From: a virus
Taxonomy: Duplodnaviria > Heunggongvirae > Uroviricota > Caudoviricetes
Direction: 5' to 3' (one strand)
Length of the DNA: 6,198 nucleotides
Virus record (IMG/VR): IMGVR_UViG_2563366980_000008
Numbering within the stretch: position 1 is the first letter of the stretch; every line of letters starts with the position of its first letter. A program made the translations under genes and the position numbers. Under the pieces are notes generated by a model, which searched no databases, was not told where the DNA came from, and saw only the letters and a program-made list of their open reading frames with translations. Shown piece after piece: positions 1-6,198 of this stretch.

Positions 1-2721
1 CAATACAGCGGTATCTGGGACGGAACGTTTAAGCCAGCATACAGCAACAACATGGCCTGGTGTCTGTGGGATATGCTGACCCATCCGCGCTACGGCATGG
101 GGAAGCGTCTCGGTGCGGCGGATGTGGACAAATGGGCGCTGTATGTCATCGGCCAGAATTGCGACCAGTCGGTGCCGGATGGCTTTGGTGGCACGGAGCC
201 GCGCATCACCTGTAATGCCTGGCTGACCACACAGCGCAAGGCGTGGGATGTTCTCAGTGATTTCTGCTCGGCGATGCGCTGTATGCCGGTATGGAACGGG
301 CAGACGCTGACGTTCGTGCAGGACCGACCGTCGGATAAGGTGTGGACCTATAACCGCAGTAATGTGGTGATGCCGGATGATGGTGCGCCGTTCCGCTACA
401 GCTTCAGCGCCCTGAAAGACCGCCATAATGCTGTTGAGGTGAACTGGATTGACCCGGATAACGGCTGGGAGACGGCGACAGAGCTTGTGGAGGACACGCA
501 GGCCATTGCCCGTTACGGTCGTAACGTCACGAAGATGGATGCCTTTGGCTGTACCAGCCGGGGGCAGGCACACCGCGCCGGGCTGTGGCTGATTAAAACG
601 GAACTGCTGGAGACGCAGACCGTGGATTTCAGCGTGGGTGCTGAAGGGCTTCGCCATGTACCGGGCGATGTCATTGAAATCTGCGATGATGACTATGCCG
701 GTATCAGCACCGGTGGTCGCGTGCTGGCGGTGAACAGCCAGACCCGGACGCTGACGCTCGACCGTGAAATCACGCTGCCATCCTCCGGTACCACGCTGAT
801 AAGCCTGGTTGACGGTCAGGGTAATCCGGTCAGCGTGGAGGTCCAGTCCGTCACCGACGGCGTGAAGGTGAAAGTGAGCCGTGTTCCTGACGGCGTTGCA
901 GAATACAGCGTGTGGGGGCTGAAGCTGCCGACGCTGCGCCAGCGCCTGTTCCGCTGCGTGAGTATCCGTGAGAACGATGACGGCACGTATGCCATCACCG
1001 CCGTGCAGCATGTACCGGAGAAAGAAGCCATCGTGGATAACGGGGCGCACTTTGACGGTGACCAGAGCGGCACGGTGAATGGTGTCACGCCGCCAGCAGT
1101 GCAGCACCTGACCGCCGAAGTCACCGCAGACAGCGGGGAATATCAGGTGCTGGCGCGCTGGGACACGCCGAAGGTGGTGAAGGGGGTGAGCTTTATGCTT
1201 CGCCTGACCGTGGCAGCGGATGACGGCAGTGAGCGGCTGGTCAGCACGGCCCGGACGACGGAAACCACATACCGCTTCAGGCAACTGGCGCTGGGGAACT
1301 ACAGGCTGACAGTCCGGGCGGTAAATGCGTGGGGGCAGCAGGGCGATCCGGCATCGGTATCGTTCCGGATTGCCGCACCGGCAGCGCCGTCGCAGATTGA
1401 GCTGACACCGGGGTATTTTCAGATAACCGCCACGCCGCATCTTGCGGTTTATGATCCGACGGTACAGTTTGAGTTCTGGTTCTCGGAAAAGCGGATTGCG
1501 GATATCAGGCAGGTTGAAACCACAGCACGCTATCTTGGCACGGCGCTGTACTGGATAGCCGCCAGTATCAATATCAAACCGGGCCATGATTATTATTTTT
1601 ACATCCGCAGTGTGAACACCGTTGGCAAATCGGCATTTGTGGAGGCTGTTGGCCAGCCGAGTGATGATGCATCCGGCTATCTGAATTTTTTCAAAGGAGA
1701 GATAGGGAAAACCCATCTGGCTCAGGAGTTGTGGACGCAGATTGATAACGGTCAGCTTGCGCCTGACCTGGCTGAAATCAGGACGTCCATTACGGGTGTC
1801 AGCAATGAAATCACGCAGACCGTCAATAAGAAACTGGAAGACCAGAGTGCAGCGATCCAGCAGATACAGAAGGTTCAGGTTGATACAAATAATAACCTGA
1901 ACAGCATGTGGGCTGTGAAGCTGCAGCAGATGCAGGACGGACGCCTTTATATCGCGGGTATTGGTGCCGGTGTTGAGAATACTCCTGACGGTATGCAGAG
2001 TCAGGTGCTGCTGGCGGCGGACAGGATTGCGATGATTAATCCTGCGAATGGCAACACAAAGCCGATGTTTGTTGGGCAGGGCGATCAGATATTCATGAAC
2101 GAAGTGTTCCTGAAATATCTGACGGCTCCCACCATTACCAGCGGTGGCAATCCCCCAACGTTTTCACTGACACCTGATGGTCGACTTTCTGCGAAAAATG
2201 CGGATATCAGCGGTAACGTGAACGCGAACTCCGGGACGCTCAACAACGTCACGATTAATCAGAACTGTCGGATTCTGGGAAAACTGTCAGCTAACCAGAT
2301 TGAAGGTGATATTGTCAAAACGGTGGGAAAAGCCTTTCCGAGAAATGGCAGTTATGCCAGCGGTACAATAACGGTCACTGTGTACGATGACCAGGCTTTT
2401 GACCGTCAGATAGTAGTCCCCCCCGTTCTGTTTCGTGGGGGTAAGCATGAAAACTTCAACAGCAACAACCAACAGTCATACTGGTATTCAACCTGTAAGC
2501 TGCAGGTACTGAAGAACGGACAGGAAATCTTTCAGCAACCCGCGACGGATGTCAGCAGGGTATTTTCATCAGTCATTGATATGCCTGCCGGACACGGCCA
2601 TGTCACCCTGACTTTCAATGTTTCTTCATATGGTGCTAATAACTGGACGCCAACGACCAGTATCAGCGACCTTCTTGTTGTTGTGATGAAGAAATCTACA
2701 GCCGGTATCAGTATCAGTTGA
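1..2721 (+). CDS. J: Host specificity / tail tip central fibre protein J, C-terminal ~906 codons (5' partial; gene continues upstream of window)
   Basis: Frame 1 is open from position 1 ([17 protein letters not shown] precedes the first Met at 52) and ends at TGA 2719-2721. The size, the central region of fibronectin-III-like repeats (about aa 340-540 of the ORF) and the position directly upstream of an Stf-like gene match the lambda J family, recognised from memory. Internal reverse-strand ORFs are treated as artefacts. Confidence 0.88.
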
Positions 2722-2779: not shown

Positions 2780-4903
2780 ATGGCAGTACAGATTTCAGGC
2801 GTGCTGAAAGACGGTGCAGGAAAACCGATACAGAACTGCACCATTCAGCTCAAAGCAAAACGTAACAGCACCACGGTTGTGGTGAACACGGTGGCCTCAG
2901 AAAATCCGGATGAAGCCGGACGTTACAGCATGGATGTCGAGTATGGCCAGTACAGCGTTATCCTGCTGGTTGAAGGTTTTCCGCCTTCACATGCCGGGGC
3001 CATCACCGTGTATGAGGATTCTAAGCCGGGGACATTGAATGATTTTCTGGGCGCTGCAACAGAAGATGATGTTCGTCCGGAGGCACTGTATCGTTTTGAA
3101 AAGATGGTGGAAGAGGTGGCACGCAACGCTGAAGCCGCCTCTCAGAGCGCAGCGGCAGCAAAGAAATCAGAAACAGCAGCGGCATCGTCCAGGAATGCGG
3201 CGAAAACATCAGAGACGAATGCAGGTAACAGCGCGAAAGCGGCAGCTTCTTCAAAAACAGCCGCACAAAACGCAGCAACAGCGGCAGAACGTTCAGAGAC
3301 AAATGCCCGTGCGTCAGAAGAAGCCTCCGCAGACAGTGAAGAGGCTTCCCGCCGTAATGCAGAGTCAGCCGCTGAAAATGCCGGAGTCGCCACCACAAAA
3401 GCGCGGGAGGCCGCAGCAGACGCAACAAAGGCCGGGCAGAAAAAGGATGAGGCTCTGTCGGCAGCGACACGGGCTGAAAAGGCGGCAGACCGCGCAGAAG
3501 TCGCAGCGGAAGTGACTGCAGAGCCCTATGCGAATATAGTGCCGCCGCTGCCTGATGTGTGGATACCGTTTAACGATTCACTGGATATGATTGCGGGTTT
3601 TTCTCCGGGCTATAAAAAAATAGCTATTGGTGACGATGTGGTTCAGGTCGCCAGTGATAAACAGGTTAATTTCAGTCGCGCATCAACGGCAACATATATC
3701 AACAAATCTGGCGAACTGAAAACGGCGGAAATTAATGAGCCGCGATTTGAGTGTGATGGCCTGCTTATTGAGGGACAAAGAACGAACTACATGCTCAATT
3801 CGGAAAGTCCAGCCAGCTGGGGGAAGTCATCAAACATGGATGTGCCCGAAACCGGGACAGATAGTTTTGGTTTTACTTATGGAAAGTTTGTCTGCAACGA
3901 TTCTCTGGTTGGGCAAACTTCGGCTATTAATATGGCATCAATTGCTGCAACAAAGTCAGTTGATGTCTCAGGCGATAACAAGTACGTGACAACCTCATGC
4001 CGTTTTAAAACAGAACGACAGGTAAGGTTACGTATACGGTTTGATAAGTATGATGGTAGTGCAACAACTTTTCTTGGCGATGCGTACATTGATACGCAAA
4101 CGCTTGAAATTAATATGACAGGTGGGGCTGCCGGCAGAATTACGGCACGAGTCAGGAAGGATAAGACCACAGGCTGGATTTTTGCAGAGGCAACGATTCA
4201 GGCAATTGATGGTGAGTTAAAAATAGGCTCTCAGATACAGTATTCTCCTGAGCGGGGTGGGGCAACAGTATCTGGTGACTATATTTATCTTGCCACCCCA
4301 CAAGTAGAGAATGGGCCGTGTGTATCATCATTTATTATTTCAGGAGGCAGCGCAACGACAAGAGCCAGTGATTTGGTTAGTATCCCCACCAGAAATAATC
4401 TTTATAAGTTACCATTTACTTTTTTACTTGAGATTCATAAAAACTGGGATATTGCACCAAACGCCGCACCCCGCGTGTGGGATATAGCAGCAGCCAATAC
4501 CGGGCAATCAGCAATTGCAGCAATCAACAGAGGTAGTGGTAAGTTATATATGAGTCTGTCAAACCCTTCAGGCTTGTATGTTAATAGCGCAGCGACAGAT
4601 GTATTTGCAGAGAAAACCACATTTGGATGTATTGCAAAAGCTGATGGTCACTTTCATGTGGTGACAAATGGTAAAGCGGTTAATGAAGTTTATTGTGAAT
4701 ATAATGGTGTGACCGCTGATAAAAATATCCGATTTGGAGGGCAGACGAATACTGGAGAACGACATCTGTTTGGCCATATTCGCAATTTCCGCATATGGCA
4801 TAAAGAATTAAATGACAGGCAAGGTAATGACTCCAACTTATTGATAGTGTTTTATGTTCAGATAATGCCCGATGACTTTGTCATGCAGCTCCACCGATTT
4901 TGA
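2780..4903 (+). CDS. stf: Side tail fibre protein (lambda Stf-like N-terminus); 3' end altered by IS1 insertion. Native coding sequence runs to 4822, and the last 27 codons plus stop (4823-4903) are read from IS1
   Basis: N-terminus [38 protein letters not shown]...[16 protein letters not shown]...GFPPSHAG is near-identical to the lambda Stf N-terminal domain as recalled from memory. GGAG at 2771-2774 precedes ATG 2780 by 5 nt. The ORF track starts at in-frame GTG 2774, but ATG 2780 matches the lambda start MAV. The frame crosses the IS1 boundary at 4823 and stops inside IS1 at 4901-4903. Confidence 0.85.
3130..3520 (+). repeat. Ala/Ser/Thr-rich degenerate repeat region (fibre shaft) inside stf
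   Basis: Translation is low-complexity: [58 protein letters not shown]... with recurring SETNA motifs. Nucleotide near-repeats tcagagacgaatgc (3209-3222) and tcagagacaaatgc (3293-3306) lie 84 bp (28 codons) apart. The high-GC repetitive sequence generates spurious ORFs in other frames on both strands. Confidence 0.65.
4814..4822. repeat. 9-bp target site duplication (left copy) of IS1: gacaggcaa
   Basis: gacaggcaa lies immediately outside the IS1 end at 4823, and the identical 9-mer lies immediately outside the other end at 5591-5599. IS1 typically generates 8-9 bp duplications. Confidence 0.93.
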
Positions 4904-5341
4904 GAACGACAGCGACTTCCGTCCCAGCCGTGCCAGGTGCTGCCTCAGATTCAGGTTATGCCGCTCAATTCGCTGCGTATATCGCTTGCTGATTACGTGC
5001 AGCTTTCCCTTCAGGCGGGATTCATACAGCGGCCAGCCATCCGTCATCCATATCACCACGTCAAAGGGTGACAGCAGGCTCATAAGACGCCCCAGCGTCG
5101 CCATAGTGCGTTCACCGAATACGTGCGCAACAACCGTCTTCCGGAGCCTGTCATACGCGTAAAACAGCCAGCGCTGGCGCGATTTAGCCCCGACATAGCC
5201 CCACTGTTCGTCCATTTCAGCGCAGACAATCACATCACTGCCCGGCTGTATGCGCGAGGTTACCGACTGCGGCCTGAGTTTTTTAAGTGACGTAAAATCG
5301 TGTTGAGGCCAACGCCCATAATGCGGGCTGTTGCCCGGCAT
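4838..5341 (-). CDS. insB: IS1 InsB (InsB' frame; functional transposase is the InsAB' fusion made by -1 frameshifting)
   Basis: 167-aa [67 protein letters not shown]... matches IS1 InsB. It is in the -1 frame relative to insA and overlaps its 3' end. Confidence 0.95.
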
Positions 5342-5535
5342 CCAACGCCATTCATGGCCATATCAATGATTTTCTGGTACGTACCGGGTTGAGAAGCGGT
5401 GTAAGTGAACTGCAGTTGCCATGTTTTACGGCAGTGAGAGCAGAGATAGCGCTGATGTCCGGCGGTGCTTTTGCCGTTACGCACCACCCCGTCAGTAGCT
5501 GAACAGGAGGGACAGCTGATAGAAACAGAAGCCAC
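5260..5535 (-). CDS. insA: IS1 InsA (transposition inhibitor / N-terminal part of the InsAB' transposase)
   Basis: 91-aa ORF with a zinc-finger-like CxxC...CxxC N-terminus (CPSCSATDG...CSHCRK) and the C-terminus ...[11 protein letters not shown], matching IS1 InsA from memory. Confidence 0.95.
5278..5284 (-). other. IS1 programmed -1 ribosomal frameshift motif A6C (AAAAAAC) at the insA/insB' overlap
   Basis: On the - strand the insA codons read CAC TTA AAA AAC TCA (H-L-K-N-S); the + strand shows gtttttt at 5278-5284. This is the slippery heptamer known to produce InsAB' in IS1. Confidence 0.85.
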
Positions 5536-5590
5536 TGGAGCACCTCAAAAACACCATCATACACTAAATCAGTAAGTTGGCAGCATCACC

Positions 5591-5599
5591 GACAGGCAA
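5591..5599. repeat. 9-bp target site duplication (right copy) of IS1: gacaggcaa
   Basis: Identical to 4814-4822 and directly abutting the IS1 terminus at 5590. Confidence 0.93.
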
Positions 5600-5613
5600 T
5601 TAAAAGAGGTCGT

Positions 5614-5892
5614 ATGAAAGATTTAACTTTGAAGTTTCATGACAAACTGCAGTTTAAGGCCTTCCTGTCATCTCTTGACTGGGAGGAGGATGAAGACCTC
5701 CAGAATAAACTGTTAGTCGATGAAATTGGTTTCACCTACACAGAAACAGGGGTAACAGAAGAGGGAGAACCTGTCTGTGTCCGGAATGACGGTTATTTTG
5801 TCAACATTCGCATTCTTGATGACTTGTTTGATGTTTCTGTATTCTCTGATTATGTCGTGGAGCTGGAAACACCGCTTCGGGAATGGAGCTGA
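5614..5892 (+). CDS. Hypothetical acidic 92-aa protein, unrecognised; originally translationally coupled to the fibre gene
   Basis: ATG 5614 is preceded by AAGAGG (5603-5608) and the ORF ends at TGA 5890-5892. The protein is rich in D/E (WEEDEDLQNKLLVDEIG..., TEEGEP...), has no predicted transmembrane segment, and matches no family I can recognise by eye. With IS1 and one target-duplication copy removed, the fibre stop TGA (5615-5617) overlaps this ATG as ATGA. Confidence 0.6.
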   Translation: MKDLTLKFHDKLQFKAFLSSLDWEEDEDLQNKLLVDEIGFTYTETGVTEEGEPVCVRNDGYFVNIRILDDLFDVSVFSDYVVELETPLREWS

Positions 5893-5904
5893 AAGGAGGA
5901 AATA

Positions 5905-6198
5905 ATGGATATAAGCCCCTTACTTCATGCGCTTTGTGCTGTGGCTGCGCAGATACTGGTTGGTCTTTTTACCGGAAACTGGGCTTACGGAGCGATAGCC
6001 GGTTGTACGTTCTTCATTGCGCGTGAACATACCCAGGCAGAATATCGCTGGATTGAAATGTTCGGGCATGGCAAGCGAATGAATATGCCGTGGTGGGGCG
6101 GTTTTGATCCGCGAGCTTGGGATGTGGCAAGCCTGATGGATTTTGCTGTGCCGGTGGTGGCGTGTCTGCTGGTCTGGCTGTTGGTTAATCGTGGGTGA
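5905..6198 (+). CDS. Hypothetical small membrane protein (97 aa, about 2 predicted transmembrane segments), unrecognised
   Basis: Strong Shine-Dalgarno AGGAGG (5894-5899) precedes ATG 5905 and the stop TGA is at 6196-6198, the window edge. Hydrophobic stretches LLHALCAVAAQILVGLFTGNWAYGAIAGCTFFIA and LMDFAVPVVACLLVWLLV flank a Trp-rich loop (EYRWIEMFGHGKRMNMPWWGGFDPRAWD). The start is 12 bp after the previous stop, so the two genes are likely co-transcribed. Confidence 0.6.
   Translation: MDISPLLHALCAVAAQILVGLFTGNWAYGAIAGCTFFIAREHTQAEYRWIEMFGHGKRMNMPWWGGFDPRAWDVASLMDFAVPVVACLLVWLLVNRG

Follow-up and report, generated by a model that had tools for sequence, protein, structure and literature searches.

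Does the insertion sequence (IS) element IS1 that lies near the end of a tail-fibre gene in a lambda-like prophage of Escherichia coli mark a genuine and recent transposition, and what has it done to the fibre? We addressed this question for a stretch of 6,198 nucleotides (nt), hereafter the window, that is listed as IMG/VR virus record IMGVR_UViG_2563366980_000008 (Caudoviricetes) and derives from scaffold KB732695.1 of E. coli KTE55 (GCA_000351505.1). The explanation that best accounts for the locus overall, and in which we have high confidence, is a recent IS1 transposition, confined to KTE55, into the side tail-fibre gene that likely impaired the fibre tip and is expected to exert only weak polarity on the genes downstream.

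An IS1 insertion with an exact empty site

IS1 occupies positions 4823-5590 of the window, with its transposase genes on the minus strand, i.e., antisense to the fibre gene. The element is exactly 768 base pairs (bp) long, begins with GGTAATGACTCC, and ends with GGCAGCATCACC. It is flanked by two copies of the 9-mer GACAGGCAA, at 4814-4822 (left) and 5591-5599 (right), both unstranded features. This 9-mer occurs only these two times in the window, each copy is flush with one end of IS1, and the identity of the flanking copies stops at 9 bp on both sides. The coordinates of the element and its target-site duplication, as first read from the DNA in the original prediction, all hold. A 9-mer repeat by itself is not beyond chance, since four other two-copy repeats of 9-10 nt lie within 4600-5800; the chance of a given 9-mer matching at one fixed place is ~4e-6. 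What carries weight is where the repeat lies and that an empty site exists, rather than the repeat as such.

Deletion of IS1 and one 9-bp copy in silico produced the joined sequence CATAAAGAATTAAATGACAGGCAATTAAAAGAGGTCGTATGA and restored an open reading frame (ORF) of 686 amino acids (aa) from the ATG at 2780; starting instead from a GTG at 2774, two codons upstream, the restored ORF is 688 aa. The restored fibre ends in NDRQLKEVV-stop, and uninterrupted relatives confirmed both the reconstruction and its LKEVV-stop ending. In the present DNA, CAA (Q) at 4820-4822 is the last fibre codon before IS1; the reading frame then continues into the element for 26 codons (4823-4900) and stops at 4901-4903. 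The ORF list thus gives a fused gene at 2780-4903 on the plus strand, encoding 707 aa (681 native and 26 IS1-encoded). The net change to the protein is the loss of five residues (LKEVV) and the gain of 26 foreign ones; the original prediction was right about the five native residues but had counted 27 derived from IS1. The five orphaned native codons and their TGA stop lie at 5600-5617 (plus strand), and the coding sequence (CDS) of the reconstructed gene ends, as in E. coli UTI89, 18 nt past the junction. The public record of the fusion (ELE13452.1, 'hypothetical protein A1SI_01907 [Escherichia coli KTE55]') is likewise a 707-aa product with an ATG start, and a look-up of the 709-aa product expected from the GTG start found no record.

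The empty site that this reconstruction predicts is present in other genomes. The predicted 22-mer AATGACAGGCAATTAAAAGAGG was found in 35 IMG/VR viral contigs, and the reconstructed locus of 1,024 bp matches, at 100% identity, that of UTI89, NU14, S88, IHE3034, APEC O1, ATCC 25922, ABU 83972, and many others. At least 80% of this empty locus is present in 452 of the 5,426 complete E. coli genomes, 426 records match it at an identity of at least 99%, and 2,232 member sequences make up the cluster that contains the native 686-aa allele. The window flanks (4,822 and 608 nt) align to UTI89 with 0 mismatches in 5,430 nt and with an overlap of exactly 9 bp; what KTE55 has in addition to UTI89 at the locus is exactly IS1 and 9 bp. 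UTI89 and the other empty sites carry one copy only of the 9-mer, which confirms that the flanking copies are a true duplication. In contrast to the empty site, the occupied site was found in none of the 5,426 complete E. coli genomes, where the best coverage of window positions 4300-6100 at a single place was 57%. None of the GTDB species representatives, JGI metagenomes, or IMG/VR contigs contained the 25-mer spanning the junction, and the 707-aa fusion lies on one contig only in an index of 153 billion genes.

The inserted element is an intact member of the IS1 family, as had been proposed, with a length of ~768 bp, imperfect terminal repeats, insA and insB' in tandem with an A6C site, a 9-bp duplication, and near-identity to the reference. 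Its terminal inverted repeats (unstranded) are 23 nt long and 78% complementary; the right repeat (IRR) lies at 4823-4845, where the fibre reading frame enters IS1, and the left repeat (IRL) at 5568-5590, where it overlaps a promoter-like site of insA on the minus strand (5583-5556). On the minus strand, insA (5260-5535) encodes 91 aa from a GTG start, and a -1 frameshift at its A6C site (5278-5284) joins it to the insB' reading frame (4838-5341) to give the InsAB' transposase of 232 aa. The product annotated publicly on the source scaffold has the same length of 232 aa and contains the Zn_ribbon_InsA, HTH_Tnp_IS1, and DDE_Tnp_IS1 domains; from NCBIfam, NF033558 (transpos_IS1) and the Zn-binding domain were matched. 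Alignment with IS1A of K-12 showed identity at 762 of 768 positions (99.2%), with six substitutions, which places the element as an IS1A-family isoform. It is identical at all 768 positions to the UTI89 copy at 1292700-1293467, which has ymgA and ymgF as its neighbours, is oriented as in KTE55, and lies ~10 kb downstream of the fibre site. With the occupied site in KTE55 alone and an IS1 identical to this resident copy of UTI89, the insertion is recent and strain-specific. The earlier suggestion of recency is in this way supported by flanks free of mismatches, by identity to resident IS1 copies, and by a junction seen nowhere else searched.

The UTI89-type IS1 near ymgA is a plausible candidate for the donor, as judged from the map of UTI89 rather than that of KTE55. 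Copies that are 100% identical also occur in many other genomes, i.e., on chromosomes and plasmids of extraintestinal pathogenic E. coli (ExPEC) and avian pathogenic E. coli (APEC), and the median E. coli genome has IS1 at 11 places. K-12 has ariR and ymgC where the UTI89 element sits between ymgA and ymgF, which suggests an IS1-associated deletion at that UTI89 site.

IS1 is described as a 768-bp element that makes target duplications of 8-9 bp and transposes in the chromosome mainly by a replicative route, with a promoter that partly overlaps IRL (PMC12428005). Among the K-12 copies, appreciable transposition was reported only for those with the consensus sequence (PMC12428005); the isoform found here differs from the K-12 consensus at 6 positions. 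The insertion target is 66-69% AT within 15-50 bp, compared to 48% for the window without IS1. IS1 prefers AT-rich DNA targets, and the composition of this target fits that preference. A scan of 4600-6198 for promoters and terminators found only, inside IS1, the insA promoter-like site (minus strand) and one weak terminator-like hairpin (plus strand); no outward promoter was found in this region, and neither count exceeded the expectation from shuffled sequences. A preprint on IS1A and the capsule in E. coli HS was set aside, as it concerns another phage and another locus.

In the sequence of events that we propose, a resident IS1 would have jumped into the side tail-fibre gene, at its AT-rich 3' end, of a lambda-like prophage of ~47 kb that is integrated at icd in KTE55 with sitABCD as cargo, in a sequence type 95 (ST95)/UTI89-like background with identical IS1 copies. 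The transposase would have made cuts staggered by 9 bp, and their repair would have duplicated GACAGGCAA. Translation of the fibre now reads through the right end of IS1, and LKEVV is swapped for 26 foreign residues.

The fibre tip and its new C-terminus

What these five residues contribute depends on the protein that they complete. Judged by its N-terminal domain and its position, the gene is a side tail-fibre gene of the lambda Stf type, as the original prediction held for a tail fibre. It starts at 2780, directly downstream of gene J, which ends at 2721. The window contains the 3' part of J (1-2721, plus strand), which specifies tail-tip attachment and host specificity and is truncated by the window start; it matches the Pfam families Phage-tail_3, Ig_J, Ig_J_second, Phage_Tail_Tip, and Ig_GpJ_C and is annotated as gpJ in UTI89. 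No tfa-type assembly chaperone gene lies directly downstream of the fibre gene; genes of 92 aa and 97 aa are found there instead. In UTI89 and many other genomes, the PGAP annotation splits the uninterrupted 686-aa ORF into two features, namely a 'pseudogene' (a prophage tail fibre N-terminal domain with its C-terminus missing) and an overlapping CDS of 574 aa in the same frame, the 'phage head spike fiber domain-containing protein'. This split is an annotation artefact, since the DNA is one open frame.

Residues 1-131 match the lambda Stf-type N-terminal domain PF08400 (phage_tail_N) with an expectation value (E) of 1e-68 and 229.9 bits (cut-off 26.6). They are followed by an alanine-rich region (residues ~100-250) that is predicted to be helical in a low-confidence model, and by a match to NF048003 (GTA_spike_fiber; NCBIfam) at residues 329-529, with 55.3 bits (cut-off 36). 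The Rcc01080 chain of PDB entry 6tb9 matches the fibre at E 6.6e-10, and the fibre also matches the tail protein family phrog_1419, with an alignment that extends to the last position of the profile. For residues 560-680, PF13385 (Laminin_G_3) scored 22.7 bits (E 1.2e-4), which is under its gathering cut-off of 27.6, and a sequence search of the PDB with the C-terminal 165 residues returned only a chance match (E 0.085). Counterparts of the C-terminal 438 residues are found in 228 phage records, including lambda-like phages, the Seuratvirus VogelGryff, the T5-like phages VSe12 and IrisVonRoten, and rV5-like phages.

We used AlphaFold2 to model the last 172 residues of the native protein (residues 515-686; window 4322-4822 and 5600-5614) from an alignment of 40 sequences of distant representatives. 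The model had a predicted local distance difference test (pLDDT) score of 89.1 and a predicted template modelling (pTM) score of 0.82; a model of the full-length native fibre from a 19-sequence alignment was poor (pLDDT 46.6) and was taken as a hint only. The tip is modelled as a two-sheet jelly-roll beta-sandwich with the concanavalin A (ConA)-like lectin fold, in which the last beta-strand (residues 665-673, GHIRNFRIW) is followed by a short helix (residues 679-685, DRQLKEV). Foldseek matched the model to pentraxins, family 40 carbohydrate-binding modules (CBM40), and the Hc lectin domain of botulinum neurotoxin (BoNT), with a probability of 1.0 and template modelling scores of 0.6-0.68; there were 396 matches at E<=0.001. 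CBM40 modules that bind sialic acid are among the best structural matches, at a sequence identity of 12-17%. UTI89-type hosts make the polysialic-acid K1 capsule, and the modelled likeness to CBM40 is only a lead as a clue to the receptor.

The best-conserved part of this fibre family is its last ~45 residues, across lambda-like, Seuratvirus, and T5-like phages, with the C-terminal signature HLFGH[IV]RN[FL]R[IV]WHKxLTDxQ[LIM]K[E]x[VI]. A homologue search of 1.84 billion representative proteins gave 73 matches, of which 57 (at 50% clustering) align through the position of Q681, the last native residue before IS1. The length of the tail beyond this position is nearly fixed: proteins end after five residues in 44 of these 57 relatives, after six in 10, after seven in two, and after eight in one, and none is longer. 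In the alignment of 40 sequences, position 682, a leucine in the native fibre, is occupied by L, I, or M in 38, and most residues at position 685 are hydrophobic, with L, I, or V in 26. The proposal that the C-terminus matters is supported, with the lost residues in the most conserved stretch of the family and a terminal tail that hardly varies in length.

The insertion alters this tail in both length and character. The junction after Q681 splits the modelled terminal helix, and the IS1-encoded tail opens with the helix-breaking residues GNDSN and then contains a hydrophobic stretch of 10 residues. Since 57 distant relatives all end 5-8 residues past the junction position, a foreign tail of 26 residues probably harms the fibre tip. 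In the proposed mechanism, the lost residues would complete the short C-terminal helix behind the last strand of the ConA-like beta-sandwich, such that the distal lectin-like domain may be destabilised or may lose its interaction surface. The most likely outcome, on the strength of the model, is a distal fibre domain that is misfolded or at least impaired, with side fibres lost or weakened. The side fibres of lambda are accessory, given that lambda PaPa infects through J without them, whereas Ur-lambda requires them to get past the O16 O-antigen layer (PMC11990801). If lambda PaPa is a guide, the KTE55 phage would show less primary adsorption to surface glycans and a narrower range of smooth hosts, with J-mediated infection kept; most likely it still forms particles and adsorbs poorly to those natural hosts that are smooth or encapsulated. 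The event is probably neutral as far as the bacterium is concerned.

The competing explanation that survives best is that the insertion is real and has no functional effect, i.e., that the fusion fibre folds, assembles, and binds. We consider this unlikely but not negligible, and several observations weigh in its favour or otherwise against the reading of an impaired tip in an otherwise intact prophage. The core beta-sandwich is whole in the model, its last strand ends 8 residues before the junction, and with this core untouched, a partly functional fibre is possible. The model itself is less sure of the region that is lost, with a pLDDT of 67 for its final block and lower confidence for the last two residues. 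Phage 3W, which was recovered from lysogens, bears a far larger loss of 43 C-terminal residues in the same fibre, so particles can form without this terminus; this recovery is silent on how efficiently those particles adsorb. Furthermore, the source is a draft scaffold in which a gap of 3,355 N inside gene J ends just before window base 1, so that the prophage is only presumably intact elsewhere. Set against an absence of effect are the short tail in every one of the distant relatives, the conserved character of positions 682 and 685, and the break that GNDSN would introduce into the predicted helix ahead of a hydrophobic segment. An impaired fibre tip remains the preferred reading.

UTI89 has only 931 bp between the sequences that flank the gap in J of KTE55. 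Either the size of the gap was overestimated, or KTE55 has extra DNA in J, e.g., another IS.

Downstream genes and other disruptions at the prophage end

Does the insertion affect more than the fibre? In UTI89, a lambda-like prophage inserted beside icd occupies the corresponding locus, with ~47 kb from the integrase gene to a partial icd copy. Its early genes run in the order int/xis, exo/bet/gam, repressor region, O/P-type replication genes, and a QuuD-type antiterminator. The late order is lysis genes, terminase, portal, head genes, tail genes through J, the fibre gene, and the 92-aa and 97-aa genes; the prophage ends with sitABCD on the opposite strand and then the partial icd copy (attR). 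The phage record Lambda_ev017 (genus Jouyvirus) contains a fibre with a 100% identical C-terminal half, both small genes, and the sit genes; a literature search on ev017 gave irrelevant matches only. Prophages of the genera Jouyvirus and Bievrevirus can be induced from gut E. coli, which indicates that the fibre belongs to a phage type active in nature. The iron/manganese transporter sitABCD is prophage cargo between the 97-aa gene and attR, and is also present in Lambda_ev017 and phage 3W; as these phage records carry it, this virulence-associated transporter is phage-borne.

The 92-aa gene (5614-5892, plus strand; phrog_1361) begins with an ATG that overlaps the native fibre stop codon (ATGA), and the 97-aa gene (5905-6198, plus strand; phrog_1443) is, from the context in UTI89 and ev017, the last gene on the phage strand ahead of the sitABCD cargo. 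Both phrog groups are of unknown function. No match was found for the 92-aa protein in Pfam, NCBIfam, PADLOC, or the PDB, nor for the 97-aa protein in Pfam, NCBIfam, or PADLOC, and an Rfam scan of the whole window detected no RNA family. Homologues of the 92-aa gene occupy the same position in five phages of four lineages, where they overlap the fibre stop codon by 1 or 4 bases; leaving aside the one phage that nearly matches the present one, the protein is 49-53% identical in the other four. The recurrence of this position and overlap makes the 92-aa gene a conserved partner of the fibre module. In Tritos, VogelGryff, VSe12, and IrisVonRoten, the 92-aa gene is followed by a gene for a second fibre or a chaperone, whereas KTE55, UTI89, and ev017 have the 97-aa gene instead. 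Tritos also has a gene of 294 nt, the same size as the 97-aa gene, behind its second fibre gene.

Translation of the fibre now ends 711 nt upstream of the ATG of the 92-aa gene, so that any translational coupling between the two is lost. The 92-aa gene retains its own Shine-Dalgarno sequence, AAGAGG (5604-5609, plus strand), inside the orphaned fibre end. IS1 is a polar element, and lambda-type antitermination relieves such polarity. Since the prophage type encodes a Q-family antiterminator (QuuD-type in UTI89), polarity of the insertion on the downstream genes in late transcription is expected to be weak.

Other prophages of this type are disrupted in the same region. Phage 3W (OM475430.1), which derives from lysogens, has a ~2.5-kb IS66-family element in the same fibre gene, with TnpA, TnpB, and TnpC recognised by Pfam; its 8-bp duplication TATAATGG corresponds to window 4700-4707, and 43 codons are removed. 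In FDAARGOS_1301 (NZ_CP070111.1), a ~1.3-kb IS3-family element with an annotated programmed-frameshift pseudoknot lies a short way ahead of the 97-aa gene's ATG, at ~5901-5907; the DNA of this sister prophage is otherwise 100% identical. Frameshifted fibre alleles are also on record (P0089, P0137, and P0172), and diverge at ~codon 647, in an A-run at 4721-4725 (window 4718-4726); P0089 represents a cluster of 599 members. These alleles may reflect either real decay or homopolymer sequencing errors. Together, the nearby IS hits and frameshifts suggest that this end of the prophage is under relaxed selection and offers AT-rich targets; they give the IS1 event no special standing.

Two further explanations would give these disruptions a purpose. 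In the broader one, the near-invariant fibre helix would dock a 92-aa adaptor or chaperone that carries the distal fibre in phages with branched fibres, and the IS and frameshift hits would reflect selection on lysogens to disarm their side fibres. We regard this as improbable; if it were true, disarmed side fibres might stop released virions from re-adsorbing to sister cells, and KTE55 would hold a natural separation-of-function allele. Marginally less probable still is that the IS1 insertion itself was selected, with the lysogen gaining from disarmed side fibres or from altered expression of the 92-aa and 97-aa genes. In its favour, three independent IS insertions lie within 1.2 kb in related prophages (IS66 at 4700-4707, IS1 at 4814-4822, and the IS3-family element at ~5901-5907), alongside the alleles frameshifted near codon 647. 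However, GC content across the window is lowest in the 3' half of the fibre gene, a base composition that IS1 favours, and non-essential prophage genes gather insertions neutrally. Each event is moreover rare, with the IS1 junction in one strain and the IS3-family insertion seen incidentally in a single genome, and the frameshifted alleles may include sequencing errors.

The remaining alternatives concern how IS1 came to be where it is. An old, inherited insertion, already present in the infecting phage or fixed in a sublineage and hence uninformative on recent activity, is highly improbable: packaged relatives do carry IS elements, as phage 3W does with IS66, so phages can transmit insertions, but an inherited copy is difficult to reconcile with an occupied site that is missing from every complete genome, found on a single contig of the gene index, and absent from the GTDB, metagenome, and IMG/VR scans, or with an IS1 and duplication that are as free of mutations as the flanks. 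Misplacement of IS1 into the fibre gene by an assembler or scaffolder can practically be discounted, for although the scaffold is a draft with a large N gap 2.8 kb upstream and multi-copy repeats such as IS1 often confuse short-read assemblies, a perfect 9-bp duplication of a unique target at both IS1 ends is beyond an assembler's making, both junctions are continuous and without N, and the flanks join precisely once IS1 and 9 bp are taken out. A recent transposition in KTE55 thus stands as the preferred origin of the locus.

Comparison with known systems

That IS1 disrupts a non-essential prophage gene and duplicates 9 bp is a textbook case, nothing at the locus goes beyond known biology, and the element had already been annotated publicly. 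What modest interest the locus has lies in the allele, in which 26 residues naturally replace five at the best-conserved point of a fibre module that is lectin-tipped, widespread, and uncharacterised, and that is common to lambda-like, Seuratvirus, T5-like, and rV5-like coliphages. It could be used to probe the roles of the terminal helix and the 92-aa companion. With the nearby IS66 and IS3-family hits, it illustrates the decay of accessory fibre genes in sitABCD-carrying ExPEC prophages, and the insertion provides a typing marker for the KTE55 lineage.

The element resembles IS1A and IS1E of K-12 in its length, imperfect inverted repeats, A6C-frameshifted InsAB', and 9-bp duplication. It differs from K-12 IS1A by its six substitutions, as an isoform resident in UTI89/ST95-type genomes and many plasmids. 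The nearest parallel for the event is the IS66 insertion of phage 3W, an independent hit near the 3' end of the same gene (~97-99% nucleotide identity) with a clean 8-bp duplication. In contrast to IS1 in KTE55, that element is ~2.5 kb long, removes 43 codons rather than five, and is found in a phage genome record and not only in a chromosome.

For the fibre itself, different known proteins correspond to different domains. Residues 329-529 match the GTA_spike_fiber domain of Rcc01080 (PDB 6tb9), the head spike fibre of the gene transfer agent (GTA) RcGTA; this likeness is confined to the middle domain and does not reach the C-terminal domain into which IS1 inserted, and Rcc01080 is located on the capsid rather than the tail. 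The closest counterpart of the tip is Gp22 of IrisVonRoten (Bas32), whose last 150 residues are 45% identical and share the same terminal motif, and whose stop codon is overlapped by the same 92-aa gene. Gp22 was described as a proximal lateral fibre with a predicted 'galectin-like' domain that protrudes from its C-terminus and to which a distal T-shaped fibre attaches (PMC11990801, BASEL-II); this predicted lectin-type domain agrees with the fold modelled for the KTE55 fibre tip. In IrisVonRoten, however, the gene for the second, T-shaped distal fibre follows, whereas KTE55, UTI89, and ev017 have no second fibre gene, and the N-terminal anchor is of the T5 Ltf type rather than the lambda Stf type. 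LtfA and LtfB of DT57C were also considered as the closest analogue and rejected, as they end in an autocleaving pfam13884 chaperone domain that is absent from the KTE55 fibre.

The KTE55 fibre shares with lambda Stf the N-terminal PF08400 domain, the position right after J, and the role of an accessory fibre. It differs in its distal half, which comprises the GTA head-spike-fibre domain and the modelled ConA-like lectin domain, and in being followed by the 92-aa gene rather than tfa. The precedent for its disruption is lambda PaPa, in which a side-fibre gene was likewise lost to spontaneous mutation while J-mediated infection can remain (PMC11990801), through a frameshift there and an IS here.

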